This document shows positions 16,184-62,975 of a DNA stretch of 64,000 nucleotides, piece by piece. Below the pieces are notes generated by a model that was given only the letters and a program-made list of their open reading frames with translations, ran no database searches and was not told where the DNA came from. Numbering within the stretch: the stretch's first letter is position 1; every line of letters starts with the position of its first letter. Position numbers and translations under genes: made by a program. The DNA comes from Callorhinchus milii (lineage: Eukaryota), in assembly GCF_018977255.1 (NCBI RefSeq), contig NW_024704742.1:21702001-21766000 (forward strand). The letters run 5' to 3'.

Positions 16184-16312
16184 CAAAGTGTGACCCTGTA
16201 TGCCGGCACGGAGGTGTGTGCGTGAGACCCAACAAATGTTTGTGTAAAGAAAGCTACACAGGAGCGCAGTGTGAGCAAGTTGATAGAAACATTCGAAGAG
16301 TGCCAAGGGCAG
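16184..16312 (+). CDS. HHIP: HHIP exon encoding EGF repeat 2 (ends at internal donor 16312, or reads through to TAG at 16365)
   Basis: Acceptor ttcttcaatag|. Encodes (A)KCDPVCRHGGVCVRPNKCLCKESYTGAQCEQVDRNIRRVPRA, matching human AKCEPACRHGGVCVRPNKCLCKKGYLGPQCEQVDRNIRRVTRA. CAG|gtattc donor at 16312/16313. Confidence 0.95.
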
Positions 16313-33159: not shown

Positions 33160-33992
33160 AGCCAGTCAGGAACCTCGGCGTTTTGTTCGACCCTGAGCTG
33201 TCCTTTCTCCCTCACATCCGCACCACAACTGGCACCGCCTTCCATCACCTCCGGAATATCGCCAGATTACGGCACTACCTCACCCCTCACGCCGCTGAAA
33301 CCCTGGTTCACGCCTTTGTCACCTCAAGGCTGGACTATGGGAACTCTCTCCTCGCCGGCCTTCCCGCCACCTCCCTCCACAAGCTGCAGGTCATTCAGAA
33401 CTCTGCAGCTCGTGTAGTGTCCCGAACCAGGCTTCGGGACCACATCACTCCCACCCTCGCTCGCCTCCACTGGCTCCCCATCCCCCAGAGGATTGATTTC
33501 AAGATCCTCATCCTCACCTACAAGGCCATTCACGGCCTTGCTCCCTCCTACCTCTCCAACCTACTATCCCCCTACCTACCTACCTACCCATACCCTCCGT
33601 TCCTCTGGCTCCGGTCTGCTCCACGTCCCCCGCCCCAACCGCCCTACTATCGGTGGTCGGGCCTTCAGCCTCTCAGCCCCCAGGCTCTGGAACTCCATCC
33701 CCCAGTGCCTTCGCCGCTTCCTCCCTTTCCTCCTTCAAGGCCGGTCTCAAAACCTTTCTCTTTGGCCGTGCCTTCAGCTCCCCTCTCGACTCTCTTCCTC
33801 CTCCTCGCTCCCTCCCTTCCCTCCCCTCACCCTGACCATTTCCCCCCTCCTCTCTCCCTCCCTTCCCTCCCCTCACCCTGACCATTTCCCCCCTGCTCGG
33901 GTCATGACCCAACTGTGCAGCGCCTTGGGACGTCCTCCTGACGTGAAAGGCGCTCTATAAATGGAATCTTGTTGTTGTTGTTGTTGTTGTTG
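33160..33992 (+). mobile_element. L2 LINE 3' fragment (ORF2 C-terminus, 3'UTR, (GTT)n tail)
   Basis: RNLGVLFDPELSF...HLRNIARLRHYL...LVHAFVTSRLDYGNSLLAGLP...LQVIQNSAAR...LHWLPI is typical L2 ORF2; frameshift near 33585. Confidence 0.95.
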
Positions 33993-34520: not shown

Positions 34521-36396
34521 CGTATTCGGTCCATATTGCATCTCAGTGTGCTCTATGATTGATGCTCCAGTGGTGGCAATGACATGTTTGCCTTGCTCTC
34601 AGTGCAGTTGCACCTTTTTTTGTTTAAAGATCCAGGAAATCCCATTTTTCTGTTCTGCCCCTGGATAATGTTGTATGCTTATGTTCAACAGATGTTGTGA
34701 TTTAGGTTGCAACAAACGAGGAGGAACTGTCTCAAAGACCCTGGGCATGTTCAATCTGGATGGTATCATTCCTTCTGCAGCTGAATGCTTAGGTACTGAG
34801 AGTGGCAGGAACTACAAGAGAAGATAGATCCAGAGATGGAAAGAATCCCTTCACCATAGGTCTTTCAGAGGCGATATTAAACCAAGGATCCACCTGTCCA
34901 TTTCTGGGTGGACATTAAAATTTCCATGGAATTTTTTTAAAAAGTACTGTAGACCATGGCCACTGATGGTGGAACCGGGCGAACGAGGGATATGCAGGAG
35001 GCTGGAGCCAGTCTAGCGAAGGCAGCGGGTAGTGGGTTCAGGAGTAACCAGGTCGGAGAGGTAGGGAGGTGCCAGGGTCTGAAGGGCTTTGAATTCTGGA
35101 CCATGCTGAGTTTGCTGCTCTCGGCAAGGGCTGCGTTAAAATCAGTCAGGTTTATAAGTCTTGGTTTCCCTAGTGGCAGTCTGCATGTGCAGCAGCCAGG
35201 GAGAGGCGCAGCTCGGATGTGGTGCCCTCCACAGTTGAATGGCCAGCCATGGTTCACACATGAAGAGTGGTCAATAGGATGTGGTACTGGAGGGCAATCA
35301 TTGCTCAGGGAGCCACATCCTTGTGGCCAGAAGCGATCTGGGGTTTATTAATTCGTTCCCCTTGAAATCACGTTGTGGTTTTCTGAGCACAGCAATAACT
35401 GGGTGTTTGCGGTTGAACATTGTAGGTAGTTTTGTACGTAACAATATCCCACAAACAGCCTTGCAGTGAATGCTCAATTTTATGTGCGGGGGTTGTTGGT
35501 CAAGACACCGGGAGAAACTCCTTTCTCATTTTGGATAGTGTCATGGGATCTTTAAGGTCCAAATGAACATTTCGACCTGATGAGGTGGGCTATCAACCGC
35601 AAATATTATTGCTAGACTTTTCATTGCATCTCAGTGGAAGACAACAGATTAATTCTCACTTTCACTGAAAAAAAGCAAGGAGAGCTTTATCCTAGCGTTT
35701 ATCTTTTACTCGTTGCCAACCGAATTCTGTGTGTAGACAAACATCCTTTATTTTGAATTTCCAGATTGTTAGTACTGTACTGAGCAAAGTGACATTGCCC
35801 TGCACTTGTGATCTCTCTCTCCCATGCCCTGCACCTCACAAGCCTGTCGCTGGCGTTGCCTAGCTCACCGATGACCGAAAAGGTATGTCCTTAAATACAT
35901 GTCAATGATCAGGAAGAGAGATGACCAAAGGAGGACCTGAACTCAACAGTAATTTGTCCCAAGCCCCAGACTGGGCGAAACAGTGTGAGGAAGCTCCACA
36001 ATTGTTACTTTCCTGAGAAAACCCAAGTGCATTGAGACTTTAAGGAGGTGACTGTGCAAAGATTGCCTTGAGCATCTGGGTTTAAAGGACACCCCACAGG
36101 CGAATTAACTCCTCACCCCCTCTCTCTAATCTTAAACCTACTCTCAGCCCTAACTCACCCTAACAGCTGCTGAGGATCCAGAGTCAAAGCAAAGTGATCC
36201 GCAGCCAGAGAGCGATCTGGGGTGTTTCTTGTTGTTTTTTTATTGATTTGTTCCCCTTGAAATCAGTTTATGATTGTCTGAGGCAGCAAATAACTTTTGA
36301 ACTGAGCCTTTCTGCACATCAGCCAAGGGCAGCTGAGCTGAGCTGAGCAGATCAGATCAGAGGCTTCCCTCCTACCTTTACCCACCACACACAGTG

Positions 36397-36473
36397 ATGG
36401 CTCAACCCAAGACAGTCTTGTTTCTACTCATCCTCAACTCTCCTCTGAATTCAGACATGCACAGGCAGATCAG
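36397..36473 (+). CDS. Nephronectin/EGFL6-like gene exon 1 (putative signal peptide)
   Basis: gtgATGG start; MAQPKTVLFLLILNSPLNSDMHRQI(R) with a short hydrophobic core; CAG|gtaggt donor, phase 2 matching the next exon. Confidence 0.7.
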
Positions 36474-36686
36474 GTAGGTGTTGGCTGGTATTGATCTCAT
36501 TATTATTATTAATATTATTATTATTATACGTCACCTTATTGTTTTGCAACACAATAATCAATTGATACAAAGATCTGAAGGAGACCAACTGCTTCTCCTT
36601 TTTTTGTTTTTGCAAACCCATGTCTGTAATTGTCTGATTTCTCTCTCTTTTTTTACACACACATGCACACACTCTCTCCTTTGCAG

Positions 36687-36808
36687 AGACGAGCAGGGAT
36701 TGGAGTTTGCCCGTGTTCCCAGGGCACAGTGGCCAGGTGCTGTGTGTGCTTTTGGCCAGGCTCTCTCTTGCTGCTATGGGTGGAAGAATTTCAGTGGAAT
36801 CTGTCAAC
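36687..36808 (+). CDS. Nephronectin/EGFL6-like gene exon 2 (N-terminal Cys module)
   Basis: ctcctttgcag| ... C|gtaagt. DEQGLEFARVPRAQWPGAVCAFGQALSCCYGWKNFSGICQ(P) resembles NPNT GLCRYGGRIDCCWGWARQSWGQCQP. Confidence 0.9.
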
Positions 36809-38014
36809 GTAAGTGGCTGCAACATCTGGAAAGTCTCACGACTCTTTCAGCCTCCTTCTATTTGTCTCTCTCCTCTCTCTCCCTTTCTCTCTCTCTGTCT
36901 ACAGATCTGCTTAAATTGTTCTCGTTTGCACATAGCCCAGATCTTACCTTCTGCACCTTGTGTGGAGTTAGCTCGAAGCAGCTAAAGCAGCTCTCTGCAA
37001 ACCTGTACTGTACAAGCGTATGCGTTATTTGTTCAACCTTACTTCCTTAATGTATATCTATGATCCTGCAGGCTGACAATATTCCTAAAAAAAAGCATTA
37101 GGAATAACCGTGCAAAGGTGCAATGGGACTTTTACGAGCTAACGAAATGCAAAACCTTCCGTTTTTGAATTAATGCTGTGCCCTTTATTAACACTCAAAC
37201 CTGCTTTAGTGCTTGGGAGTAACAGATTGTCTAAAACTGTCCATTGTCATATACAAGCAGATTTTTAAAAAATGTAATAATAATCCTTGAATTTGATATC
37301 GCGCCTTATAACATCGTTGAGACGTTTCAACGTGCTTCAAAGTGATTGTATATCTTGTGGGCAAAACACAGCAGCCGGGTGCGCACAGCAGTGTCTCACA
37401 CACAGTTGTGGATTGAGTGACCAAATTATTATCATTTTTTAAAAGGGATGTACTCAAAGGTTGAAGTAATAATAATCCCTCCAAGTAATAATAATCCCTC
37501 CAAAACCAAAAACAATAATAAAATTGGTCATTTTCAATCTACGACTGTTTGTGGGACATTGCTGTGCGCAATTGGCTGCCGCGTTCGCCCACAAATATAC
37601 GGTCAATTCACTTTACAGTGTGTTCTGTGAAGCGCTTTGGGACATCCTCCCGACGTGAAAAGCGCTATATCAAATGCAAGGATTATTATTATTATTATAA
37701 GGTTGAAAACTTTGATTAAAATACGGGGTTGGAAATGTTTACTACATTTCATTCAACATAATTAATAGTTATGATTTCCAACCTCCTTTTACAGTATTAC
37801 GATTGATATAAGATTAAGCAGCCTATATATCCAGAGTACATGCAAAAAAAAACACAATGGGTAGCAGGTCTGAATGACTCTTAAGCTAATTGTTGCCATA
37901 GACTCAAGCCTGAAAATAAAGAACTGAAGCTTCAATCTACATTTGAACTTCAGGGTAGTATTTTGTACCCACAAGTACTAAACTACCAGTGGAACTTTTA
38001 AAGCTAGAATCTAT

Positions 38015-38262
38015 GAGGGAGAAAATCTGCCTGAGTCTAGATTTTTTATTCTATTTTCTTAAAGATTTAGAGTCTCCAGAATTTGGCAAATTGTTGAATT
38101 CAGTCATAGCTTTGAAGACGGCTTTCTAGAATTTTTAAAAGAAACTTACAGAAACAATGGCTTCAAAATTCAGGCTGTGTTTAAGAACTTGCCAAATTCA
38201 GGATTCTCTGAAATGCCATTAAAACAGAATAAATGTAGATCTATGTGGAAGTTTTACCCCTT
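38015..38262. repeat. Palindromic MITE-like repeat; second copy in opposite orientation at about 2440-2640
   Basis: TTTAGAGTCTCCAGAATTTGGCAAATTGTTGAATTCAG here is the reverse complement of CTGAATTCAACAATTTGCCAATTTCTGGATCTCTAAA at about 2552; each copy is self-complementary. Confidence 0.7.
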
Positions 38263-40595
38263 ATGTTGTTGTGGGATGGAGAGTCCAGTATTTTTTTTAG
38301 CCATTATTGCACTAAATTAGGTTCACAATACTTTTTGGTTTTGTTCTATTATATAATTGTAGGAAGTTTACCACAAAGTGATTAACTACAGTAACAAAAG
38401 AGTATCTTAACAATAATAAACTGCTTTTTATGTAAAAACAAACGTCTTAAAGGACTTTACAATGTATAATTGATTAGAGGTGAATTGAATATTATACAAC
38501 AACAACAACAAAATTACATTTGTATAGTGCCTTTCACGTCGGGAGGATGTCCCAAGGTGCTGAAAAAAGAAGTCAGGGGTCACCCGGATATGAACTAAGG
38601 CCCTCTTGACACAGACAAATATGCGACACCTTTCTGGACCAGGAATGTCCCATAAACAACAATCAGTTGAGCGGCCAATTCATTTGAACATTTGAGGGTT
38701 ACATTTGAATTAGGAGGGGCATATAAACAATAAAAAATTACCGACATGGACAAGTTATGCCAAATAGCCTATTTCTATGGTGTATAATTCTATGAAAAAA
38801 TGGAAGCAAATCTCTGAGTTTCTTTTTAATAGCACTGATAGGGATGTCACTTGACTACCACTTGAATCATAGGATAGCGGAAATGAAAATTAATAACACA
38901 ATTAAATAATGCTGGATGATTATCTAGAATTAAAGAATAAAATTATACATAATATCATTATGCTTTTGAGTACTGCAGCATGAGTACTGCAGTACTCAAT
39001 GGCATAATAGAACTGCAAGTTCTTGTGGATCCCATAAAACCCATAAGGGTATAGGCAGGACCACCTGAATTATATGGCTACAGCTCAGGTCCTGCAGTTT
39101 CCTTCTGCTTTGCAAACGAACTCCATTTTCACTCTTTCACTGTCCACTAGTTAAGCCATTACTTTGTTACTTGGACAATTCTGCCTGGACATTGCCAAGT
39201 TGGAGCTTTACTCCTTTAAAAACAATTAGCTCTAAATGACAAGCTAAATGAAAAGCAAAGCTTGGAACATACAATGCTTCGTTCCGAAACATAATTATAA
39301 AGCTCAAGTTTGGTGCATAGCATTTAGTGCACATCTAAGCTGTAATAAGTTAAACCAGCCCAGTCTGAAGATGTAAGCAACTGCAAACTCATTATGTCCC
39401 AACATATCACTTGAGCAATGCATCCTCAGGTATGCCTTTAAGTAAAGAATTTTGAGTGAAGAAAGAAAATGCCAACAATAAAGAGCAGTACACCAACATC
39501 AAGGATCAAAGCCCACTTTCAAAGACACTTAGTATTTCATTGAAATCCTTTTGTTTCATTGTCTCAAACCCTTTCCATTCTTGGCTTAAACTCTCAAAGT
39601 AACAAATAGCATTCATCCTTATTGCTTTGTAAATGAGCCTAAACGTTCCTCTCATCAATACAAGTTTGTGTGGCGGAATCCTGGCAGTTTATAAGTAGTT
39701 TAAAATGTAAGGGAAAATAGGATCACAATGTTAATGGGCAATAGATGTGAGCATTATTTGGCTAAGTACAAATAGCTGCCGCATTTAACCACAAAACTCA
39801 AATTTGTAAAGCATTTTGAGAGGTTCCAATGTGATAGAATTGCAAATGCAAGAATTATTAGCACATCTCAGACTTTATATTTCAAACGAGGTGAAAAATG
39901 GGGGAGCTCTGTGCAGAGGCTAATAATAATAATCCTTTATTTTATATATTGCCTTATCACGTTGAATAGTTGAAATGTTTCAGGATTTCCAGTGAAGTAT
40001 ACTGTACATTTTTGTAAGCGAATGTGGAAGCCAATTTGCACACAGCATTGTCCAACAAAAAGACATGAAGTGAATGACCAATTTTTCATCTGGGGGACTG
40101 GTGGCCAGAACTAGGAGAAACTCCTTTATCTCAATCAAGTAGAGTAATCTTGTTATGGAGCTAGCGGGCAATATTTGGAATGGTCTAAGGCTTGAGGATA
40201 CATTGGTGCAGACGTGGTGCAGGCCTTTACTTTTGTAACAATCCCTGAGAAACACTCTGCTAACCGCAAAACCATCTGAACATTTAAATGAACATCAAGA
40301 CTTCCTTGTGACCTGCAAAGACCAACTGATTTTCACAACGCCCTCAAGCCATACCAATAAAACCCACTGCTCACCACCTGACTGAATAATACAACTACTT
40401 GCAGCAAAACCTTAGTATTCTACGCCCAGTGGAAAGCAACCATGAGGCCATTGGGCTGTAGATTTACACCTGCAAGAAAGTGATGTTTATTGAAACAATT
40501 TATTTAACTTACTGAGAAATAATTGGCACAAAATATCATGAAATTGGTGACTTTAAATATTTATACCAGCTGTATTGAAACTCTGCAGGTCCCTT

Positions 40596-40987
40596 GGAGC
40601 CCTGTAGCTTAGTGGATAGAGCACTTGCCTCGCAAGAGAGAGGATCTGGGTTTGATTGCCGGGCAGGGGGAAACGTTTGGCAAGTTTCCTTAATCCACAC
40701 GCTTCTCTTCACCTAGCAGTAAGTAGGAACCGGTTGTTAGTTAATTGGCGGATCACTTTTCCAGAGGTAACAATCCCTTAAAAAAAGTTTCAAAATAATA
40801 ATAATAATTTGGTCACTTAATCCACAACAGTTTGTGGGATACTGCTGTGCGCAATTAGTTACCACTTTTTACCCACAAAACATACAGTCAATTTCACTTT
40901 ACAGTATATTCTCTGAAGCATTTTGAGACATCTAGTAGATGTGATAAGGCACTATACCAAAAATTGCAAGGATTATTATTATTATTA
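40596..40987 (+). mobile_element. tRNA-derived SINE, long subfamily
   Basis: Same head, body and tail as the 28189 copy; ends about 45 nt before the exon 3 acceptor. Confidence 0.88.
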
Positions 40988-41033
40988 TGTGAGCCTTCAA
41001 TTCATTTCATATTGTTTTTTATTTAACTTGTAG

Positions 41034-41126
41034 CTCAATGTTATAAACCATGTAAACATGGAATATGCACTGGTCCGAATCTCTGCACATGCTTTAAAGG
41101 ATTCAAGGGAAAGTACTGCGACGCAG
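41034..41126 (+). CDS. Nephronectin/EGFL6-like gene exon 3 (EGF1)
   Basis: ttgtag| ... G|gtaaac; 93 nt, phase 1-1. (P)QCYKPCKHGICTGPNLCTCFKGFKGKYCDA resembles NPNT [31 protein letters not shown]. Confidence 0.92.
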
Positions 41127-41724
41127 GTAAACTATTTTACTAAATATCCCTTACTGTCTTTGTTTTATTTCCAAAGAGAAGGGGATTAGGAACAAGAAGA
41201 GACCATTCAGCCCATCAAAGCTGTTCAGACAGTTTATTAGATCATGACAGATCTTTTATTCCCACTTTTCCCACATATCCGTTAATACACTTAGTTCCCA
41301 TCACCACGCTCAATAGTATCCAAACCAGGCTGAGAGTTCCACATATGTATGCCACCTACACACAAACATTTCCCTGTGCCTGGAATGCGATGTGCACTCT
41401 CTCTCTGGAGGATCACATAATTCTGGAGAGTATTAGAGGTAGGTTGGCTAGAACAAAGATTGAAACCCCAGATTGTGCATTGGCTTCTGCCTTTTGCACA
41501 TCTCTCATCACCTCTGCTCAACCATCACTGGTCATGCTTTCAGCCAGAACACCCCAAAACTATGGAGCTCACTACCTCAAATCCGTCGTCGTTCCCCCCC
41601 TTTAATATTACTTTTAAATAAGATGGTGTTGTTGGTGGTACTAGATATGGAACACAATTATTTTTACAATTAAATAGTAAAGCAAATAATACTTGCATTT
41701 ATTGTTATATCACAACAGTGTTTT

Positions 41725-42041
41725 ATAATAATAATAATAATAATCCTTGCATTTGATATAGCGCTTTTCACGTCGGGAGGACATCCCAAAGCACTTCACA
41801 GAACACACTGTAAAGTGAATTGACTGTATATTTGTGGGCGAACGTGGCAGCCAATTGCGCACAGCAATGTCCCACAAACAATCATGGATTGAAAATGACC
41901 AATTTATTATTGTTTTTGGAGGGATTATTATTAGGCGTGTGGAGTAAGGAAACTTGCCCAAGGTTTCGCCCTCTGCCTGGAATTGAACTCAGGTCTCTCG
42001 CTTGCAAAGCGAGTGCTCTATCCACTGAGCTACAGGACTCC
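41725..42041 (-). mobile_element. tRNA-derived SINE, short (young) subfamily
   Basis: Very similar to the copies at 46705-47015 and 56032-56354. Confidence 0.9.
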
Positions 42042-42044
42042 ACA

Positions 42045-42630
42045 GCCATAGGACTCTTCATCTTTTGGATGAAGAAGGCCCTTTGGTCCATTTGACCTCA
42101 TCTTTCTAGAATTCCAACCCGACCATCCTTCCATCACACCATCAAGCTTTTTTTAAAATGAATCCAGCAATCCAACCTCAACCACCCTTCTTGGTAACCT
42201 GTTCCAGCTGTTAATTACCCTCCAGGTAAATAAATACTTCCTCATCCTCTGTCTTAAAATTGCCCTTTAAAATATTAAACCTCTGTTCTCTTGTTCTTCT
42301 GTCCTGGCAATGCCAAAAGGGTTGTTTTGAGTTTAATTTCTCATTCCCATTTAAAATCTTGTATACCTCTATAGAGAAGTCCTCTGCGATGTCTCTCTTC
42401 AAGACTAAAGAGCCCCAGTGTGTCTAATTGTTGCTCCTAGCTCATTCCTCTTAACACTGGCGATCATCCTCGTTGCTCTCCTCTGTACTGCCTTATGTTA
42501 AGGTGACTAGAACTGTGTACAACAACAACAAGATTACATTTGTATAGCGCCTTTCACGTCGGGAGGACGTCCCAAGGCGATGAAATACTCAATACTAAAA
42601 ATAAAAGTGTACAATACTCCAGGTGCAGCC
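42045..42630 (-). mobile_element. CR1 LINE fragment, degenerate
   Basis: Minus-strand IEVYKILNG...RTREQRFNILKGNFKT. Confidence 0.75.
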
Positions 42631-45235
42631 ACATCAAACTTTTCAAAGCATTTCAGGCAATATATTTGTCACAATATGAACTGGCAACCCTCAGGAAGTC
42701 CACTCAGTCTCCTACCAGTGCCAGAAACCTCCTTTGGCCACAATCCAATGTCATAGAAATCAAAATTGATATTGCCTTAAATTGTTGCACCACACCCACT
42801 CTACCCAGCCTGCCAATATTTCTGCATATTGAAAGCAATTCAAGGCCATGGGATAATTTTTTCCTGCTGAAAATCTTACGAAAAGTTTTCAACATAGCGT
42901 CTGCTGGTAGGGTGCTGTTGAAATATAATTGGGAAGAAGACAGTGGAAGGGGAAGAAGTTACACAGGATTCAGTGCTAAAGGTGTGACCTGCTTCAGAGG
43001 CAGAAATGCTATATACCAGTTCATGAAGGAAGTGTCACAAATGCAGATTTTATAACCTTTCCCTGGAATGTTATTTTCTTAGAGATAAATATCGGAAAAT
43101 GACATTGGGAAAAGGTAGGAGCATGGGTTAGTTAAATGGCTTGCTCTTTCTGAGAGCCAGCGCAGGCATAATGGGCCGAATGGCCTCCTTCTGTGCAATA
43201 AATATCTATAGTTCAATGCGTTCAATTTATTTTATATTTCAATGGTTTCCTAAGGAAAGTCCTAAGTATTCTGACCCATGAACTGTTCTGCCATGGCAAA
43301 AGCTGCAACATAACTTGGAACAAATGGTGAATTACAGTTTCCCTGTTGCCACTTGTAGCTCATTACATATAAAGTAGCATATCCGTGGCAACTCGTTTGC
43401 CTCGCAGCAATTATTTAACTATGCTCTCGGTCATGAAAGTGTTAACCGTCCTTGTGCAAGTACTCAAACACAAGTGGTCAAAATAAAGGTCACAGTATTC
43501 TTTAATTTGGAAAAGGGCAAAGTCTTTAGTGCAATTTATGATAGCATTGTTTAAAAATGATTTTGTAGATATAGTATTTATCTTCAATTGCTCTAAAGAG
43601 CCAAAGGTTTACAACAGAAGGGAACAGCATGATGAAAGGCTCCTTGATGTAGACACAGTGAATGTAGTTAATATGCAACTTATGCACATGTGTGAAAAGC
43701 CTGTGTTTGAGAAGACACCTCTAACTCCAGAATCACTGGGAGCAAGGATGCTTCCCACTGCAGGCAAAGTCGTAACAGGTAGCGTGGTTCCAACTGGACA
43801 AGTAGCTGGAGGTTTGTCAGAAAGCACTCTAGTGGCAAGCTATGTGGTTTAAGCTGGTTAAGATCCAGCAATATTCCAACACACATTTTGATGTCCCCAA
43901 ACCTTGGGTCTCACTAAACTGTACTTAATACTTTGAGGAATTAGGTTATCAGGATGTGTCCCTCCAGGGAGAGAGTGTATATTTCATTCCAAGCTTAGGG
44001 AGATTTATTTGTGCTATATTTAAGAAAATGTCAGTCTGGTTTGATTCCTCTCAAGCATGGTGATGGGTTTCCCTGTGTGACTGACCAAAAACAAATGCTA
44101 GAATTATTGCATAAAAGGGTGCCCAAAACCTCTCATTGGGGGGGGTGTCAAACAAAGCAATGTCCGAAGGGATTTCTTAAACAAGGAATCGTGAAGTGCA
44201 TCAGAACCAAATCATGGGAACTCCCTACAGTTCATTCCATTTTAGGAGTAGACATTCCAGGACCCAAAGTGAGATGCGTCTTATTGAGTGCAGGAATCCC
44301 CACTCGGATTCCTTGGTTGAGGAATCCCAATTAAAATCAGTGTGTTTTAGTCTCATATCACCCAATATCAAATAAACTTTGACTGTGTGACTGCAGTATT
44401 TATATACTGTATACATTAGAACTCTACTGTGAGGCACCCCCCTATAGAGCCAATTTACTTACAAAGCAAATGCTTTGCGGACCCGCAGTTTGTTTGGGTG
44501 CAGACCGACCAGCTAAAAAAGATGGTCGACTTCCAGCTCATCAGATCCCTGCCAACATCACTTCCTGCCACCTGTGCTTTTTTTTAAAAAAAGCAGGAAA
44601 CCTGCTGCGCATAGAGTAGAGTAAATGGTGTGATGTAGACTGTGACCTGGTGACCCGGAAATCAGCCATATTTAGTACAGGAAGATGCCCAGCGACTCTT
44701 GATCATGCCCCATCATAAGGCAGTTGGAATGTTATGGACCCCATTTACTGCCTAATAACAGGGTGTTACTGTATACCTATATATCGTGGACTTGAAATTA
44801 AGCAGTGGTAATATTTCAATAGTTGTAACAACGTGAAAAATGTTGGTTAAGTCTATGTCAGTTTTTTTCTGCCAATTTTTTTTACTCTTATTTTCTCTTC
44901 TCCTGAAGCAGTTTTGGCTCCAATTTCCATCACCCAAGTTGCCAATAATTCCGTGCGAGCCTTGACAGTGAGTGCTGACAGGCTACTTGGACCATAACAG
45001 GCATGAGAGCCAACATCATCCAGCCTGCTCAGCTTGCAAGCTGATTTTGAATATGGATGGCGTAACTAAACACATGGCTTTGTCTTTGGCGTCAATTGAA
45101 TTTTCCTTCATTAAATTGGGAACTTTTGCTTATGAAAACTATACAGAATACAGATAAAAGTAGACAGTGAACATAATACTTGTCCTTAAGAAGCTCTCCC
45201 AATATATTTTTAGGGAGTNAAAAAATACTCTTATA

Positions 45236-45412
45236 CAGTCAAACCTGTTAAGCAACCATCTCCATTCAGCCACCACCTCCTGTTAGCAACAACCCTAGAA
45301 CATTTCAGACAGCCCAGTTCGCACACCAAAGGACCCTTATTCAGAGGCCACCCTTATATAATGGCCACTTTGGCGCTATGCCCTGAATGGTTGTTGAAGG
45401 TTGGTTTGACTG
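45236..45412. mobile_element. Tc1/mariner (Tigger/pogo-like) MITE
   Basis: TA|CAGTCAAACC ... GGTTTGACTG|TA: 10-bp perfect terminal inverted repeats, TA target site, internal repeated CAACCA/GCCACC motifs. Confidence 0.8.
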
Positions 45413-46704
45413 TATAAGTATTTGTCTACAATTTACCTATAAAATACAGAAAATACTTTAAATCCCATGAAGCACTTGCAGATATTCCCCTGAGGTGAAA
45501 GTCACTCTATCAAATGCAAGAATTATTATTATTATTATTGTAGCTATGATATAGACACCACTTTAAAACAGTGCACAATTCGCCATTGCCATGATTGTGC
45601 ACACTGTCTGGGGAAAATAAAATTGGTGGCTCAGAGAACCCAGTGGATTTGCTTGTTACTACAACAACTTGCATTTATTCAGCGCTTTTCATGCGGGGAG
45701 GTGTTTAGCAGCGGTGGAGCCTGGCGCTGAGCTAGGGGGAGGTGATCGTAAGCACTTACTCTTTATCTACTCATCTGGGTCCACATTAGTTCCCCTTTCT
45801 CTTAGCAGCTGCCAGTTAAGCACTCCAAGACACTGTCTGGCATGAAAGGCGCTTGTTGTTGTTGAGAATTCTGCTTTTGGTTTCACCTTCTTTCCCAATC
45901 CTTTCCTGTGGGCGATCTTCTTCTTTGCCAACCACCAAGTCATTCAGATGATTCTTGCAGTTCTTTGGGCCCCTTTATGGTTTGTAAGATCCCAGTGCTT
46001 TTTAGGGCGATCAGTCCCAGTCTCCTGGCCAACAATCCTACTCGATAAATCAATCAATCACCTCTAAGATGTTTGTGGAATTTTTACTGTCTAGAAAATT
46101 GTTCCAGTGTTTGCCTACAAAAACAGTCCCTACACTTGACAGCAATCATTTTAAAGCTCTCTGAGACACTTCACACACGATAAGGCACTACAAAGAGGCA
46201 AGTTCGTTCTTGAACCTTTCTGGGCACACAAATGGAAGTTGACATGGATATTTGTTCAGTCCTTGATACATTCCTGCAAACAGTATGGAACAATGGGATT
46301 CAATTAGTCAGCTGTTCCCTGAAGCATAGAGCACTTTTGAACTGATAAAATAAGCAGGTAGTTTGTCAACATTAACCCTTAGTAACAGCTAGACATTCGT
46401 ATTTATAACTGAGTCACTAAAACCAAATGTAACGGTGTTTGTTTCCTGCCATTGCTCTCACTGGGTCTCTTTGTGCTTTTTCAGTATTATCCAGACCCTA
46501 AGGAGGAAGGAGATGATTTTGTCCTAATCTTCATGTAGCCAGTTTATAGAAGTGGTGTTAGACCAGAGAAGATCACCATCGGCCTAAATGCGTTAGTTTG
46601 AGCTGATTTTTTTGAGCTGACATTGATTTTTTCCTCTCGAGTGGAGAGGTACTTGGGCTTAGGTTCTGCTCAATGCCAACTTATGATACACATGTGAAAT
46701 CTAC

Positions 46705-47015
46705 AATAATAATAATAATAATCCTTGCATTTGACATAGCGCTTTTCACATCTTCTAGACGTCCCAAAGCGCTTCACAGAATATACTGTAAAGTGAATTA
46801 ACTGTATATTTGTGGGCGAACGCGGCAGTCAATTCCGCACAGCAGTGTCCCACAAACAGTCATGGATTGAAAATTACCAATTTATTATTTTTTTGGAAGG
46901 ATTATTATTAGGCGTGTGGAGTAAGGAAACTTGCCCAAGGTTTCGCCCTCTGCCTGGAATTGAACTCAGGTCTCTCACTTGCAAAGCAAGTGCTCTAACC
47001 ACTGAGCTACAGGAC
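46705..47015 (-). mobile_element. tRNA-derived SINE, short (young) subfamily
   Basis: Near-identical to the 41725-42041 copy. Confidence 0.9.
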
Positions 47016-47081
47016 AACTCTCCATCTGAAACTCTGTAGTTGTGTGGCACATCACACCTCTGTAATAGGGTCATACCAGAT

Positions 47082-47497
47082 CTTGCATTTGACACAGTAC
47101 CTTCATGTCAGAAGGACGTTTCAAAGCGCTACACAGGATTTACTGTAAAGTGTAATAACTGTGAAAGCAGCAAATAATTTACGCACAGCAAAGTCCACAA
47201 ACAGCCATGAAGTGACTGACTAATTTAATCTGGCCGATTGTTGGACAGGACACTGGGATAAATTCCCATCTCTTTTTAAATAGTGTCATGGGATCTCTAA
47301 CATGCACCTGAACAGGCAGATAGGACTTTGATTTAATGTTTCATCAGTTGGATGATACCTCTGATAATGCAGCACAGCCTCAAGTACTGCATTAGAGTGT
47401 TAGCTTAGACTGTGAATTCAAGTACTGACGTGCTGCTTGAATCCACAGCCTTCTGACTCAGAGACAAGCGTTCTACCAACTGAGCCAGGTTGACACG
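47082..47497 (-). mobile_element. Deu-domain SINE, near full length
   Basis: Head GTGTCAACCTGGCTCAGTTGGTAGAACGCTTGTCTCTGAGTCAGAAGG on minus strand, core and tail. Similar copies at about 47800-48243, 30495-30948, 29115-29435, 11255-11492 and 8300-8620. Confidence 0.8.
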
Positions 47498-47624
47498 TGG
47501 CATCTTTAAAAGGTGAAATTAAATAAAGACTCATTTTTCCTCTAAATGCTGGAGGTTGTAAAATGAAACAAATGCTCACTACGAGGTCCTGTATTAAAAA
47601 GTCATGTGATTGCTTTATTTTAAG

Positions 47625-47747
47625 ATATAAATGAATGTGGGCTGATTCCCAGACTCTGTTCCCAACGCTGCATGAACACACATGGAGCCTATCGCTGCTA
47701 TTGCCGTTATGGTTACCAGATGAGTCCTGATGGGAAGACCTGCTCCA
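47625..47747 (+). CDS. Nephronectin/EGFL6-like gene exon 4 (calcium-binding EGF2)
   Basis: ttattttaag| ... A|gtaagc; 123 nt. (D)[40 protein letters not shown] resembles NPNT [40 protein letters not shown]. Confidence 0.93.
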
Positions 47748-49411
47748 GTAAGCTGACATTTCTTTGGTTAATAGTTCCTATTTCTATGTAACAATAATAA
47801 AATAATCCTGATAATCTTTGCATTTAATACAGCAACTTTTACATCAGGAGGTCTCCTCAGAGCATTTTAAAGGATTCACTGTGAAGTGTAGTGACTGTGT
47901 ATTTTGTGGGTGAACGCAACAACCAATTTGCTCACAAAATATCCCACGAACAGCCATAAAGTTAATGACCAATTTTTAACTGGAGGAATGTTGGCCAGGA
48001 CACTGGAAGAAACTCCCCTCTCTTTTCAAGTAGTGCCATGGGATCTTTAACGTCAACTGGACAGGCAGACGGGAGCTTGGTTGAACGTTTTCATCCACAG
48101 AATAGTACCTCCAACAATGCAGTGCTCCCCCAGATCTGTGTTGGAATGTCAGCCAGAATTATGAGCTCAAAGACCTGAATTGGGTCTTGAACCCAAAACA
48201 TCTAATTCAGAGATGAGAGCACTGCCAACTGAGCCAGGTTGATAAATTTCCTCTTCCCAGCTTCAGTCTGCTGCCCTGGGGGCATCTGCTAGTGAAAGGG
48301 TGCAAAAGGGGGAAGAGACGGGAACTTCTTCCAGAAGAACATCAATGCCTTTTGCTGTAGATAACTATCAGGAGGGGCTGGGCACTGTCCAGACATTACT
48401 ACCCTCTGATTTTCCTAACCCCCTCAGCAAACCATTGCTTCACTCACACTCAGTGCAGCTCCAAACAAACCTACATTCATCCTTCACTTCGACCTGTTAA
48501 GTTAGTGTTCTATCGCCAAGTACAATCCCACGGTCCAGTGGACTGTCCGATGGAGCACTAAAACACCCTAGAATCTAAACTAAAACATCGTAGAATCTAT
48601 ATCAAATGCAAGGATTATCATTATTAATATAACTATGATGGCAACACTAAAGGGATGAGTGTAGGTTTGAGCAGAGTTGCACTGAGCGAAGAAATTATTT
48701 TTTACAGCTTTGGGAATTTTTTTTAATGAAAATGTTGATATTTGTTAAAAAAAAGTAGTCACAGAACATGTCGAGAGAACTGAAGCCTTGTGTTAAAAAC
48801 AGGCGTTGATTTTGACATCAGATCCAAGGGCCACAAAGTAGGAGACTTTAGTGACAGCATGTGCTTGTCACACTGTGCCCTGGAGTGCTGAGGATGGATT
48901 TAAACCCTGCATTCTCAAGGAGACCACCTAGGCTCAGCCAAGCCCTGATGAAAGCAAAGGGCAAAGCTAGCGACTCCGTGCCATTCTTACAGCTCTCTGA
49001 TTTGCAAAAGTCCTTTTAAGTACTTTGGAAACAAATATGCAACCACCATAGTTTTACATAAGAAAACTGGAACAACAGAAATTAAGCCCTTTGAGCCTAT
49101 TCTACCAACTGGCCTTTGAGAATCATATTGTCTCATCTAAACACAGGTGCAGCATGTGGCATTCCAGCATTCTGGACATTAGCAGTGTTTGCGGTTTCCT
49201 ATTCCAAAATTGTCCGAGATTCTACTGAAATATTGACGGTTGTGAATCGCTGATAGGTGGAGTGCAAAAGTAACAATATGCACAGTTCAAGTACATGGCT
49301 TTGCATGTGAGCTTGGCATCATACCAGATTTTTCAAAATACAAGTCTTTTAAGTCACACATGGATACGTTTGCGGGTGTGTTTTTTTAAGTGTGATACCC
49401 TTTCCTTGCAG

Positions 49412-49531
49412 AAACAAACTCATGTTCTCGAGCCTGGTGTCAGTACAGCTGCCGGCAGCTGGTGAATGGAGGAGCTCACTGCTTATGTCCCAGAGGTCTC
49501 CAGCTGGCTTCAGATGACAGAACATGTGAAG
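49412..49531 (+). CDS. Nephronectin/EGFL6-like gene exon 5 (EGF3)
   Basis: tttccttgcag| ... G|gtgagc; 120 nt. (K)TNSCSRAWCQYSCRQLVNGGAHCLCPRGLQLASDDRTCE resembles NPNT CSMANCQYGC...CQCPSPGLQLAPDGRTCV. Confidence 0.93.
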
Positions 49532-50289
49532 GTGAGCCTTGGACTAGTCTGTCAGCACAGTCAAGCCTAGTCAACTTCATCAAAAAAACTCCACATCCAG
49601 GAATCATCGCTGATTGTTTTCGCTAACATGAAATTTTATTCCTGGTAATCTGTTTTTACACCACAAGTTTGACTCCAGGGGCAAAACCTTAGGGAAGTTC
49701 CTTTACTCCACATGCCTGTTTACCTAGCCGTAAGTTGTTAGTCATTTGGTGGATCGCTTTTGGAGATAATAATCCCTTAATAAAAAAATAGTAATAATTT
49801 GGTCACTCAATCCATGACTGTTTGTGGGACACTGCTATGTGCAATTGACTGTGTTTCACCCACAAAAAAATATACAGTCAATTCACTTTACAGTATATTC
49901 TGTGAAGCACTTTGAGCTGTCTCTTTATCAAAGGCAAGGTTTATTATTATTATATTCTAAAATGGCCAGTTTCACCAAATTCAGATCTCTCAAAACCCCG
50001 CATTGTGCCTCATCTTCTGTTTCCTCCACACACAGGAGGTCCAACCGGGGTGTGAACAATTGCGGAGGTTGAGCAAGTTAACCTGATGATGTTCTTCATT
50101 TGCCACAGGCAATTTTCAGGAATACCAGCTCCTCTTCTGCCCAGACTTTGGGATTCCAGAACTGAAACGTACAAGTGGTTCTGTACAACCCAGTTATTGC
50201 ATACCCCAATATACTGAGCTAATATGCTTGGTGAGTAAGGATGTACAGGAAGGACAGAGAAATAGAATTAAAGAATGTTCCTATAGACT

Positions 50290-51010
50290 TAATGGCAGAG
50301 CTTGGATGCGCACCACCTCAGTGAGCCTTGGCATGTCATAACCCACTCTGCCTTCCCCCATCTCCGCAACACCGCCCGGCTCCGCCACTGCCTCTCCCCT
50401 CAGGGCACCAAAACCCTCATCCATGCATTTAACACATCTACGTTCGACCACGCCAACTCCCTGCTTATCGGCCTTCCAAACTCTTCCCTCCATGAGCTGC
50501 AGATCAGCCAGAACTCTGCAGCTTGTGTCCTCTCCCGCACCAGGCTCCATGACCCTATCACCCCCACCTCTGCCTGGCTCTACTGGTTCCCCATCCCCCA
50601 GAGGATAGTTCAAAATCCTTGTCCTCACCTTCAAAGCCCTCCACAGGCCTTGCTCCTTTCTAAGTCTGGGGCCTGCTAACCCCATATCAACTTGTCCGCT
50701 CCCTCCACTCAGCAGGCTCCAGCCTGCTCCATTCCCCTCCCCAGACCGTCCCCACCATCAGCAATTGGGCCTTCAGCCTCCCTTCCCCCACCCTTTGGAA
50801 CTCCATCCCACAGGCTCTTCGCCTTGCTCCATCCCTTGCCTCCTTCAAGGCACGGCTTAATATCCTCCTCTTCGACCGTGCCTTCGGCCATCCTCCTACC
50901 CTTCACCCCCCAAGATCCCAAACCCTGCTCAGGTCAAAATCCCTGACTGTCCAGCACCTTGGGATGTCCTTCTGACGTGAAAGACAATATACAAATGTAA
51001 ATTGTTGTTT
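50290..51010 (+). mobile_element. L2 LINE 3' fragment, degenerate
   Basis: HLRNTARLRHCLSPQGTKTLIHAF...LQISQNSAACVLSRTRLHDPITP, followed by an L2 tail. Confidence 0.9.
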
Positions 51011-51091
51011 CTGTTTTTGCCCAGTAGGCCAATAATCTCTGATTGTTCCTATGTTCAGCGCTTTACATTATTGCTTGCTTTTGTCTTTTAG

Positions 51092-51226
51092 ACATAAACG
51101 AATGTCGAAAAGGAATGGATATGTGTCCCCAAAGCAAAATCTGCAAAAATACTTTTGGAAGCTATTTGTGTGTCTGCAGGGATGGCTTTGTAATTGGAAA
51201 TGAAGATGAGAAAATCAAATGTAGAG
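51092..51226 (+). CDS. Nephronectin/EGFL6-like gene exon 6 (calcium-binding EGF4)
   Basis: gtcttttag| ... G|gtacaa; 135 nt. (D)INECRKGMDMCPQSKICKNTFGSYLCVCRDGFVIGNEDEKIKCR. Confidence 0.92.
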
Positions 51227-52180
51227 GTACAACAACAATAACTTGTATTTGTACAGCACTTTTCACATCACTTACCACATCAAAGCACTTCATAGAGTTT
51301 GCGTCAGACACGAAGGAAGATGAGTGGGGCAGGGAGGAAGAGGGGAGATGGCCGTAGTTCAAAGAGGTAGGTGTTTAGGAGGCTTTTAAGGGCAGATACA
51401 GAGGTGGTTAGGTGAAGGGATTTAGGGAATGGGTAGACGTATAAATGGTTGGGTTCCGTACAATAAAAGATTGGACCTGTAATTTTTTAGCCTGTGATCT
51501 GTTATCTATAACCTGTCACCTGTAATCTATGACCAGTAATCTATGACCTGTAGAGCTCATTTATTTATTTCTTGACTCATTGTGGATTGCAAAATGACAA
51601 GGTAACATCACAAAACAGTCTCTAATAAGTTTTATATATTTCCAAAAATCTGTATCACACAAGTCACTCTCCGAACATGCTGTTATGGACTCATCTTGAG
51701 CAGTCATGTGTTGTAAGGTGTCTTAAACTCCAATAATCCTTTGTGTAAAAAGATTTCCTTCAGCCATCCACTTTTGTCTTCTAATGATCATCCTCAATTT
51801 GCATCCACTTGCTACTGACTCACCAAACAGTGAAAATAGTCTCCCTTTTTTTATTACCACTATCAAAACCATTCCTGAGTTGGAAAAGCTATATATTACC
51901 ATCCCTTCGCTCGTTATCCTTCCCTTCTCCAGTGAAATCAGTCCCAATTTTTCGAACTAGAACCACTCTCGTCATAAAGATATTTATCGTTCCATGTGGT
52001 TGGTCATCACATATCCTCTGTTTGCCTCTACTGGATACATATCTCACCTCACGTGAAGCCAAGATAAAAAAAGAAAGTGCCTTAGGTTCCATTAATCCTC
52101 CACTGGAACTAGGAGTGCTGAGATGTCTGGTTTGAGTTTAAAATCTGCGCTGCTCATTTTTTGCCTGATTTGCTTTCCAG

Positions 52181-52386
52181 ATAAAGACGAGTGCCTCCTG
52201 GGAGCTCACAGCTGCAGCAGACACGGTCTCTGCATCAATACATATGGCTCATACACTTGCAGGTGCCAAGAAAACTTCCAAGGAGATGGATTTGTCTGTA
52301 AGAGCCAGCAAATGCCCCACACATTGCGAGCATCCCTTTTTCGCTACAGAATGTTAAAAAGAAAAAAGATTTCACGGGATCCATAA
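52181..52386 (+). CDS. Nephronectin/EGFL6-like gene exon 7 (calcium-binding EGF5, basic tail, stop)
   Basis: gctttccag|. (D)KDECLLGAHSCSRHGLCINTYGSYTCRCQENFQGDGFVCKSQQMPHTLRASLFRYRMLKRKKISRDP*. The seven exons sum to 876 nt = 291 aa plus stop, with no frameshift. Confidence 0.88.
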
Positions 52387-54009
52387 AACGTCAGTTTGAA
52401 GTCAAGTTGGAAGAGAAATTTAAAACAAATCAAACGAGGAATATTAATGGTGACAGAAAAGAATGCAAATCGCACGATCGCTGAAAGAGGTTAAGAGCGC
52501 AGTACGTATTACCCTGAAATATGCAAATCGAAATGATTATACCTTAGTGTAATAATACATTGTTTTCCAACAAAAACAACAGTTCAAACCTACTTTTTAT
52601 GGGTTACAAATGTGTTGAGTCATTCCTGTGCTGACTTGTACAGCTACATGCAGAAACTCCGTAGTTCTGTTTCTGGATATTGTGAAAACAGTGAGATTAG
52701 ATTGAGATTCACTGTTTGAGAAACACTGTATAATGGTATACATTATGTTGAAATGCATTAATCTCAAGGAATATACAGACTTGATTTGGAATGGCATTCC
52801 TCTGTGCAGAAAATGCTTATGTTTCCATCTTTGTTACAAAAATTACACGCAGGTCTTCAGGCTCTCATCTCGTCCCAAAGAAAGAGAAAAGTTTAGCCAA
52901 CATTTTATTCACTTTAGCTTCTCTAGCCAACCTGCACTTAATACTCTCCAGATTTAGATAATCAGAGTGCGCAATCCACTCCAGACACAGGGAGATTTTC
53001 TGGTGTAGGTGGCATACATATGGCAAACTCTCAGTTTGGTTTGGATACTCTTCACTACAGTGATGAGTTGATGCATTCTTCTGACCAAAGATAAATTCAC
53101 TTTAACCAGTCGTTTCCCAACACACCCTTTCTTGTCTGTTTCTGCTTTATTAGTGCTGTCATAATTAATGCTTGTTTGAATCTTGTGTTCTAATCCTTTC
53201 CAAGCTGCAAACATGCTGTCCCACATATGCTTTCTCTTGCAATGAAACCATGATTTCTCGTAGTGGAGCTTAATTTATGCCATTCACATACTTTACGGTG
53301 TAGCTTCTGTTTTGCTGTCTAATCTGCAACATTCGTAAAACAGCTAATTGCAGTTTGCAAAAGCTGTCAAAGTGAACGAAAGGCTGGAGAGTGAAAAAGC
53401 TATCACTGCATTTTGATCTCTGTCTTTTACTGTGCAGTTAGTACACTTAATAATAATAACATAATTACATTTGATATAGCTCCTTGTCACGTCGTTGAGA
53501 CTGCTCAAAGTGCTTCACCAGATATACTGTAAAGTGCAGTGACTGTATTTTGTGAGGCAATGAGGCAGCCAGTTGCGCACAGCAATGTCCCACCAACAGC
53601 CATGGAGTAAGAGACTAATTTCATGTTCACATCTAGACACTGCCTGGGGGGGCAGGAAGGGGGTCAGGCTGAGCTGTTGACAAATAGCCATTATTTTTGA
53701 ATATTGCAAAATAAAACAGGGGTGGGGGGATTAAAGGTGGCAATTGGCAATTCCTGTCCCTTTTCTGAATATCGCAAATTAGACCTCACTATCTCTTAAC
53801 TCTAATTATAATCCTCGTATTTGATCTAGGTCTTATCACATTTTCAAGACATCTCAAAGCACTTCACAGGATTTACTTTGTGTATTTTTTGTAGCTGAAC
53901 ATGTAAATGGATATAATTCATCCAGGACTGCAACGCTGTAGAACCTCTTACCTCCCCTCGTCTTACCATTCTCCCAAAGCCTACAGGATTTTTTAAAATT
54001 AATTTGAAA

Positions 54010-54335
54010 CGCCAGACAGTACTATCGATGGCAAGTTATGCGGTTTTAGCTGGTTAGACTCCAGCAGTACCTCAATGCACACTCTGGGGTCTCCAAGCTT
54101 TGCCTCTTGCCAACCTGTACCTAATACTTTTCGGAATTAGGTAAGCAGGATGCTTCCCTCCAGGGAGAGAGTCCATTCCAACAGTCTATCTCTGGGATTT
54201 CCGTGGTGGGCGGGATGCATGGAACTCTGTTCGGTTTGGATACTCTTAAGAATGGTGAAGGGCTTTCCGCATTTGTCAGACACCTGGCTGACCCCAAAAA
54301 AAGCAGCTTGGCATCAAATCATCACATATTAATGT
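54010..54335 (+). repeat. Unnamed interspersed repeat; other copies at about 43810-44110 (+), 52920-53065 (+), 41295-41485 (-), 56510-56795 (-)
   Basis: Shared blocks GCCAACCTG(T/C)AC(C/T)TAATACT, CTCCAGGGAGAGAGT and TTTGGATACTCTT...ATGGTGA(A/T)GGG. Confidence 0.8.
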
Positions 54336-54437
54336 TAATACTGGGATATGTGCATCTATTTGGAAACCTCAGTGAGAGGTGTAAACAAATGTAACATGTT
54401 TTTTATTCTGTTCCAGACTTTGTTAAAAACATTGGCC

Positions 54438-54601
54438 AATAAACTTCTGAGTAGGTACTAAAATGTCGTAATAAAAAAACTATTTTATGTATTTACAAAA
54501 TCTGTGAATAAACTTCTGCGACAAAAGAAAGCACTGAACGTAAAATGGATTTGGCCAATGTTGAGGTAAAAGGAAACTCTGAAAGAGGTTTGAAAAATAA
54601 A
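54438..54601 (+). terminator. Cluster of AATAAA signals; candidate 3' end of the EGF-repeat gene
   Basis: AATAAA at 54438, 54470, 54507 and 54596; the last is followed by a T/GT-rich tract. Confidence 0.4.
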
Positions 54602-56031
54602 CCTTTCTTCCTTGTGTCTGTTAATATTTTCTCTCTGAACAGTGAATGCCGGTGTTATCACCAAGGAAACATTTGGGGGGAACCATGTCCGATAATGTGA
54701 GGGAGTTTTAATTTTGGCTGCTTCAGCCCTGGGGTTGTTATCAATTCAATTGTAAAGGTCACAGTTATAGGATACTTATTGGTAATATATTACTAGCAAC
54801 ATTTGCTACTAAACACAGAGCTTAATATGAGAGATGCTTTGTATGGAAGCTTTAAAAATAGGGATCTAAATTAAATTGCTAGCTGAAATATGCCTTTGCA
54901 ATGGCTTGCATTAGCAACATAAATAATATTATTTTTAGCAAGCAGCGTAGATTTATATTTGATAATATCCATATTATAAGCCTGAGCAAGAACTTGGACA
55001 AAAAGTTATTTTTTGAAAAATGAAACATACTCAGGTGGAAGAAACATTATCTGCACTAGCCCTGGGCCAGAGAAGCACATCTCCTGTTGGGTAATCACAG
55101 ATAACAGCCAAAGCCAAGTTGCTCCACCCACAGTGAACGGCAGATTGGGGCCCAAAGGAGCAAAATGAGAGGGGAAGAAACTAAACACAACAAATGTTAC
55201 ATTTATTTCAGTCTGGTCATGAGGTTGAAGTATTTTGAGTGAATTTAGCCGACACCACGACAGCTGCTTATTAAGGAAAGCAGATCCTTTTTATTCACCT
55301 CATAAAAATTACACTGCAGTGTTCGATCTGAGTGTGACATGTTTGAGAGGATTGATTGTTGAGGCATTTTAGGAAGACGGACTGGTGTGGCATTGGGGAG
55401 GGGAATGATTCAAGTTATTATTTCTAGGGCTGTTATACAAAAGTAATTTGTTGCTGCTGTTGGTGTTATTGAGATGTGGCTATGCAAACTTGCAAATTAG
55501 AACAATGACCACCAGCATGAAGGACTCACTGCTTGGTTCATTGGGATATCAGGATTTCATAAGAAATTCCACTCAAATAAAGCTCAAAACATCTCTGCCT
55601 CAATCAATCTGTTCAATCCCCCTCCCTCCCCCCAAAAAAAATCACACTCTCCTCCTTAGAGGATTATGGTGTTCAGTTGTTTCTCAATACATCCCTTTGG
55701 GAATTTGGTACTGATTTGCACTTACACTTCTGTTATTTCAAACGGGCACGGTCATTTGGTTTAGACAGGCCACATGCTCACCACATGAGATTATATGGCA
55801 TAGAAATGTAAGAGCCACAGCAACCAGCCCTAGGCAGTACAGCGTAAATTACACAGGAGGCATTCAGATCATCAAGTAACATTTCACAAATATCAATATC
55901 AGTATTAAATTCAGAACAAATCTACGCAAACGCTATTTCAGTGAGCTAATAGTGAACCTGTGGAACAGGCTCCCTAGGGAGACGGTTGTAGCGGGAAGTG
56001 TTGATACTTGCCAACACTTACATCTAGTTGT

Positions 56032-62744: not shown

Positions 62745-62975
62745 TCACCTAATGCAGCGGTACATCATGAAATCTATTGTGGTACATCTGGGAAATTTGC
62801 CGATTGAACTTTCTTCCACTGGAGTATAGACTTTAATTTGTCTCATGTGAGTGTCTCTTCCATTCTGATGATTGGCCAGCACAGCAATCTGTATCATAAA
62901 GGTGCGGATGGGCTTCTTGTTAACATCAGCAAGAGGAATGTGAATCCAGCCACTGGGCTCAACCAGTTCTAGTTG
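62745..62975 (-). CDS. ANAPC10: Anaphase-promoting complex subunit 10, last coding exon
   Basis: Minus strand tcttttaatttacag| QLELVEPSGWIHIPLADVNKKPIRTFMIQIAVLANHQNGRDTHMRQIKVYTPVEESSIGKFPRCTTIDFMMYRCIR*. Near-identical to the human APC10 C-terminus with its IR tail; convergent with HHIP as in human. Confidence 0.97.
   Translation of the reverse strand, partial: QLELVEPSGWIHIPLADVNKKPIRTFMIQIAVLANHQNGRDTHMRQIKVYTPVEESSIGKFPRCTTIDFMMYRCIR

Follow-up and report, generated by a model that had tools for sequence, protein, structure and literature searches.

A 64,000-nucleotide stretch of the Callorhinchus milii genome (RefSeq assembly GCF_018977255.1, contig NW_024704742.1, positions 21,702,001 to 21,766,000 of the forward strand; hereafter the window) carries, between HHIP and ANAPC10, a gene that we place in the nephronectin (NPNT)/EGFL6 family and that stops directly after its EGF repeats and a short tail. 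The coding sequence of 876 nt occupies seven exons on the + strand (36397-52386 of the window). All introns are GT-AG with phases 2, 1, 1, 1, 1 and 1, and the translation is 291 residues long with 34 cysteines, exactly reproducing from the exon coordinates the model of a first-pass annotation made from the letters alone. EGF2, EGF4 and EGF5 are of the calcium-binding type, as that annotation had it: EGF_CA scored above the Pfam cut-off in exons 4, 6 and 7, EGF families were found in exons 3-7, and no Pfam family matched exons 1-2. This layout of a four-Cys module and five EGFs, three of them calcium-binding, is collinear with NPNT and EGFL6. The 291-residue protein contains no RGD, again as first described, and no KGD, LDV or FEI (Table 1).

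Table 1. Features of the gene and its neighbours in the window
Feature	Window position	Strand	Protein residues	Evidence
Exon 1: ATG, signal-peptide-like N-terminus, phase-2 donor	36397..36473	+	1-26 (hydrophobic core 6-14)	fish orthologues align in length and in the Arg past the hydrophobic core
Exon 2: four-Cys module (C46, C54-C55, C65; G-W-K), FUN-like (fibrillin-1)	36687..36808	+	46-65	matches no Pfam family
Exon 3: EGF1, not calcium-binding, pairs with FUN-like module	41034..41126	+	69-95	Pfam EGF family
Exon 4: EGF2, calcium-binding type	47625..47747	+	98-137	EGF_CA 40.1 bits
Exon 5: EGF3, not calcium-binding	49412..49531	+	143-177	Pfam EGF family
Exon 6: EGF4, calcium-binding type	51092..51226	+	179-222	EGF_CA 47.6 bits
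Exon 7, first part: EGF5, calcium-binding type	52181..52299	+	224-263	EGF_CA 42.4 bits
Exon 7, second part: 28-residue basic/aromatic tail (net +8), then stop, no intron between	52300..52386	+	264-291	fixed-register match to sturgeon tail
Candidate cryptic phase-1 donor GTAAGA within last EGF5 Cys codon	52298..52303	+		no joinable downstream exon found
First canonical polyadenylation-signal candidates 3' of stop (AATAAA 53710, ATTAAA 53730)	53710..53735	+		sequence motif, putative
Upstream neighbour HHIP, last EGF exon	16186..16296	+		~56 bits to HHIP chains
Downstream neighbour (convergent) ANAPC10, last coding exon	62748..62972	-		E 1e-43

Each of the 34 cysteines is retained in 90% or more of the 23 full-length fish orthologues compared, which argues that the gene model is more than chance. 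The protein is very probably secreted, judging from hydropathy and alignment, as the signal-like segment has a 7-residue core (Kyte-Doolittle mean 3.8) and matches the orthologues in length and position. Right behind this segment, at the end of exon 1 (window 36463-36474), lies R-Q-I-R, and most orthologues likewise have an Arg there. A convertase site precedes the FUN domain in fibrillin, and R-Q-I-R could be a candidate for such a site.

Relatives were collected with a query profile made from a goby protein and a C. milii fragment, which returned 181 matches of at most 454 residues; the best 120 of these were listed, and the counts below refer to them. Profile sorting assigned 71 of the 120 to a short class, from which one generic EGF protein (P0097) was removed by hand. 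The remaining 70 comprise 64 rows from named ray-finned fish, spanning teleosts, sturgeon and bowfin, along with the C. milii fragment and 5 unnamed rows. Precomputed Pfam annotation gives a MAM family for none of these 70, and the goby relative has 259 residues and five EGFs without MAM. RGD occurs in 2 of the 70, once at a doubtful exon junction and once inside EGF3, and in none of the 25 full-length orthologues examined. The window protein scored best on the short-clade profile (320 vs 231 and 195). Its best match is a protein of the sturgeon Acipenser ruthenus (P0125; 62% identity over 258 residues), and it is 47.5% identical to a zebrafish model (P0129) over 244 residues and 48% identical to A. 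ruthenus NPNT over 224.

In a tree of 218 columns, from the four-Cys module to EGF5, and 39 rows chosen from the matches with run-off ends masked, the window protein groups with 15 ray-finned short rows (support 100/100, stem 0.93). The EGFL6 clade has support 97/97 in the same tree, and the NPNT rows are not one clade. Approximately unbiased (AU) tests rejected grouping the window protein with NPNT (p 1.45e-7) or with EGFL6 (p 2.4e-54); together with the separate clade, these rejections rule out a truncated NPNT or EGFL6. The first-pass annotation had proposed a third family member without RGD and MAM and had named a phylogeny against NPNT and EGFL6 as one of its checks. That phylogeny places the window protein outside both, and the proposal is further borne out by A. 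ruthenus, in which P0125, of the short clade, coexists with an NPNT that bears MAM (P0064). These comparisons support the window gene as a real third member of the family, orthologous to zebrafish si:ch211-194g2.4.

The position of the short clade itself was left without a choice, with AU tests accepting as its sister NPNT (p 0.26), EGFL6 (p 0.40) and cyclostome rows (p 0.25) alike. A tandem NPNT duplicate, a genome-duplication paralogue and an older lineage are therefore all compatible with the tree. A teleost NPNT-like subgroup (P0088, P0094 and P0096), in which EGF5 is apparently degenerate, was placed apart from the other NPNT rows.

The sequence after EGF5 bears on the age of the stop. 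The 26 tails scored are 26-43 residues long and all have a net charge of +6 to +11, and the motif [YF][YFL]x[YFC][KR]xx[KR] occurs past EGF5 in 51 of the 120 matches listed. The window tail aligns with the sturgeon tail without gaps at 9 of 28 identical positions, a score that none of 5000 shuffles reached; of 29,847 window 28-mers, the tail alone reaches it. Sequence 3' of EGF5 in 7 NPNT, EGFL6 and hagfish rows scored below zero in the same fixed register. Since the tail is conserved in register with sturgeon, the stop is ancient. Moreover, unbroken orthologue open reading frames (ORFs) of 288-302 residues lie on three Logan contigs of 1.06-1.27 kb (P0008, P0158 and P0036), and because these genes have introns, such contigs fit spliced mRNA ending in the tail. 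Judged by the conservation of tail and stop and by these ORFs, the truncation after EGF5 is old and fixed and not an assembly artefact. In an AlphaFold model made for the sturgeon orthologue from 32 sequences (mean predicted local distance difference test (pLDDT) 78), the tail forms a helix at residues 273-285.

At the other end of the protein, the module first described as CC-x-GW resembles the FUN domain of fibrillin-1 in model-based comparison. The four-Cys module and EGF1 of the sturgeon orthologue are collinear with fibrillin-1 FUN-EGF1 (2m74, domain i-E 0.012), keeping the cysteines, G-W-K and two EGF1 prolines, and the window protein has the same Cys and G-W-K residues. The sturgeon orthologue also shows the C1, C2-C3, C4 spacing with G-W-K packing onto the following EGF. 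In fibrillin-1, G-W-K and the two EGF1 prolines make the FUN-EGF1 interface (PMC3794157). Superposing model residues 43-96 on 2m74 residues 55-111 gave Z 5.1 and a root-mean-square deviation (rmsd) of 2.3 Å over 53 residues at 38% identity, with a Jagged-1 EGF pair scoring nearly as high. The text of the FUN paper mentions neither nephronectin nor EGFL6, and the link between FUN and NPNT is therefore not drawn there. With tail and head both present, the earlier description of the product as EGF-only did not survive.

Exon 2 as sole query gave 2 candidates, none passing, and 2 matches, both unrelated, among 1.84 billion representatives; it found no usable Atlas match and only chance-level PDB matches. 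The goby protein recovered generic EGF clusters from the Atlas, and Foldseek with the whole model recovered generic EGF arrays. The 33 loci of a metagenome scan (29-44% identity) were taken as generic EGF-repeat genes.

On balance, we favor a functional third gnathostome paralogue, a secreted EGF rod anchored to glycosaminoglycans by its tail and acting independently of RGD. The duplication would have preceded the chimaera/bony-fish split. The mucin/RGD linker and MAM exons would have been lost, and exon 7, as comparison with the orthologues shows, now runs beyond EGF5 into a basic, aromatic tail of 26-43 residues and a stop. The product would be a calcium-stiffened rod with a FUN-like/EGF1 head followed by EGF2-5, whose tail helix may bind heparan or chondroitin sulfate in place of MAM-type anchoring and whose EGF surfaces may be offered to matrix or receptor partners, RGD integrins not being engaged. 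The MAM domain of NPNT binds heparan sulfate proteoglycans and gives retention at the cell surface (PMC7956348). Because a polybasic helix stands in the place of MAM here, we consider it reasonably likely that the tail tethers the protein to sulfated glycosaminoglycans.

Published work on NPNT offers precedents for activity of this kind. Engineered Npnt without RGD and MAM retained its proliferation and Sox2 effects in dental epithelial cells (PMC5366923), and the short gene would be a natural counterpart of this construct. The EGF repeats of NPNT bind chondroitin sulfate E (CS-E) (PMC7956348), migration on Npnt is blocked by EGFR inhibitors (PMC13284916), NPNT activates ERK in endothelial cells (PMC5080588), and Npnt has a role in the zebrafish heart in the absence of detectable itga8 (PMC3253110).

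Several observations weigh against a secreted, tail-anchored member of the short clade. At five columns diagnostic of short versus long proteins, the window protein has the short residue at two, a third residue at three and the long residue at none, and the hydrophobic core of its candidate signal peptide is short. A tail hidden Markov model (HMM) built from 24 ray-finned rows scores the window tail in the right place at a non-significant 0.6 bits (E 3.3). When the tail is compared with one row at a time, 4 of 14 comparisons come out weak, with 62 to 415 shuffles in 5000 scoring as well. The tail helix of the sturgeon model has a pLDDT of about 65-71 and is weakly amphipathic (moment 0.30), and charge is the single property that speaks for glycosaminoglycan binding. 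The FUN match is modest, given that the Jagged-1 EGF pair on the same stretch reached Z 4.7 (rmsd 3.4 Å, 24% identity). Finally, the relatives search covered proteins of at most 454 residues, so that any longer isoform of the clade with MAM would have escaped it.

How far the gene extends among vertebrates, and where it came from, can be said more tentatively. The first-pass annotation had held it to be probably lost in mammals. That proposal is amended in that the loss may span tetrapods: none of 24 tetrapod rows (birds, mammals, reptiles and one frog) among the 120 matches listed scored best on the short profile, which is a weak test. The relatives search needs shared exact words and gave no shark, ray, gar, bichir, coelacanth or lungfish orthologue among the matches listed. 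With this limited sensitivity, loss in tetrapods, and not in mammals alone, is a hint and not a result; if true, the gene would count among candidate matrix genes whose loss accompanied or preceded the move to land.

In Eleginops, the locus tags of the short paralogue (P0014) and NPNT (P0082) are 65 apart, on contigs of equal size, a hint that the two genes share a chromosome. Taken with human NPNT and HHIP, which lie on one chromosome, this hint favors, without showing, an origin of the short gene by local NPNT duplication. In sea urchin, Npnt combines five EGFs with a weak MAM and lacks RGD (PMC12705340), and MAM is therefore the older state. A more sweeping reading, which we regard as somewhat unlikely, is that of an ancient vertebrate matrix protein, possibly predating the NPNT/EGFL6 split, whose integrin/MAM half gave way to a new helix that binds glycosaminoglycans. 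The FUN head would be family-wide, and the protein would have persisted for >400 million years in cartilaginous and ray-finned fishes in a fish-specific tissue role (e.g. fin, scale or skin matrix) and been lost on the tetrapod line.

The FUN likeness also raises the alternative, in our estimate unlikely, that the same paralogue is a microfibril or elastic-fibre adaptor. Its FUN-like/EGF1 head and calcium-binding EGF array would bind fibrillin, LTBP or fibulin-type partners without receptor signalling. Canonical EGFR ligands carry a G-x-R-C motif before the sixth Cys; by eye, this motif is absent from all five EGFs of the window protein, so that direct EGFR binding is doubtful, as an adaptor would have it. 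The C1-C2 loop of seven residues is as long as that of fibrillin, LTBPs being short of four residues there, and fibrillin FUN-EGF3 binds fibrillin C-terminal calcium-binding EGFs and heparin (PMC3794157). However, NPNT and EGFL6 have the same head yet are described as basement-membrane proteins (PMC7956348), and the heparin-contacting Arg of fibrillin FUN is absent from the window-protein loop; in the first loop, the NPNT and EGFL6 rows compared have one Arg or two, and the window protein and most short rows have none.

We think it quite improbable that the protein is a decoy that binds the partners of NPNT and EGFL6 EGF repeats without engaging integrin alpha8beta1 and so dampens signalling by both. 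The five EGFs of NPNT are laid out alike, with EGF2, 4 and 5 of the calcium-binding type, and alpha8beta1 binding by NPNT requires the RGD region (PMC2150762); RGD is absent from the window protein and from all 25 full-length orthologues examined. A core identity of ~50% to NPNT and EGFL6 and the long stem suggest altered binding surfaces, however, and the engineered Npnt truncation behaved as an agonist, not an antagonist (PMC5366923).

It is very improbable that the 291-residue form is a short isoform of a gene whose main transcript is spliced from the cryptic donor at 52298 to RGD and MAM exons, either overlooked or located beyond the window. The phase-1 GTAAGA donor at the end of EGF5 would allow this, NPNT has an intron behind its EGF region (PMC2150762), and proteins above 454 residues could not be returned by the relatives search. 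Against it, three MAM HMMs (6, 9 and 15 rows) and two RGD-linker HMMs, all built from NPNT and EGFL6 rows, gave no match below E 0.2 when run on the 3412 six-frame peptides of the whole window, the 10.3 kb before ANAPC10 included. As a positive control, an HMM of the NPNT/EGFL6 EGF region recovered all six Cys-rich exons (E 6e-17 to 0.002), and tblastn of three EGFL6 proteins against the window matched EGF exons only. The first-pass report of no MAM exons ahead of ANAPC10 thus extends to the whole window, and the conserved tail and stop and the short ORFs on Logan contigs speak the same way. It is hardly credible that the copy in this species is decaying or not expressed, for although the UniRef model covers exons 3-4 only (87 residues) and the terminal branch of 0.38 is longer than the 0.10 of sturgeon, frame and splice sites are intact over seven exons, all 34 cysteines are kept and identity to sturgeon is 62-67%. 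The secreted, tail-anchored paralogue is the reading that we carry forward.

Both neighbours named at first pass were recovered by exon matches. A Kunitz/BPTI exon lies at window 17929-18135 on the + strand (PF00014, 68.7 bits), 1.6 kb 3' of the last HHIP EGF exon, and since its phase-1 splice sites match, HHIP in this genome probably ends in a Kunitz domain; a literature search on this point gave a single paper, unrelated by its title. ORF fragments at window 32193-32501, 33156-33878 and 50342-50900 have no Pfam match and resemble decayed LINE reverse-transcriptase ends. Four runs guessed to be RNA, over 35800-55700, showed exon junctions at 0 of 15 listed joints, with a further 1288 joints beyond the listing; they are repeat-swamped and uninformative on expression. 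Within the introns, one or two short interspersed repeats recur in many copies, and these dominate the matching run contigs. A chicken genome-wide association paper on the region names HHIP and ANAPC10 and has zero mentions of EGF, which is too weak to count (PMC12666803).

The databases already hold this gene in pieces. A UniRef model of C. milii (A0A4W3HT97, 87 residues) is 100% identical over 71 residues to exons 3-4 and omits five of the seven exons. The window gene extends the clade to cartilaginous fishes, where this fragment is the sole matching record found. Short-clade rows bear the names nephronectin, nephronectin-like, EGFL6, hypothetical and Si:ch211-194g2.4. RefSeq labels many of these proteins nephronectin (zebrafish, sterlet, medaka, fugu and others) and a few EGFL6; the tree fits neither. 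Many fish entries called nephronectin, zebrafish RefSeq models included, are thus the short paralogue and not NPNT, and can mislead expression and orthology studies. A literature search that left most subscription papers and supplements outside its reach found no study of the si:ch211-194g2.4 gene, and the one supplement covered of an ohnolog database (PMC13450315), whose main tables lay outside the search, had no match for it. Because orthologues exist as automatic models, the gene has been seen but not characterised; as a paralogue within a known family that automatic annotation already covers, it offers limited surprise.

A natural, long-conserved gene would here isolate the integrin-independent half of nephronectin, whose activity was argued from deletion constructs, and because a zebrafish orthologue exists, the role of the EGF repeats alone is directly testable. 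The closest known system is that orthologue, si:ch211-194g2.4, which falls in the same clade (100/100), has about 290-300 residues and five EGFs without MAM, and carries a basic tail right after EGF5; it differs in being represented by database models, with no paper found under its name. Nephronectin (NPNT/POEM) shares the four-Cys module and five EGFs, and its signal peptide has a putative counterpart in the window protein, with 48-53% core identity, and the mouse protein shows the same calcium-binding pattern in EGF2, 4 and 5 (PMC2150762), whereas the window protein has a basic tail instead of the mucin linker, RGD, FEI (LFEIFEIER-type) motif and MAM. EGFL6 (MAEG) shares the N-terminal layout at 49-54% core identity, but the window protein lacks its RGD and MAM and the AU test rejects membership. 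With fibrillin-1 the head alone is common, in its four-Cys spacing, G-W-K and EGF1 prolines, and the window protein is without TB, hybrid and VWC domains. Set beside these systems, the gene is a new architectural variant of the NPNT/EGFL6 family: ancient, apparently unstudied, tractable in zebrafish and often mislabelled nephronectin.

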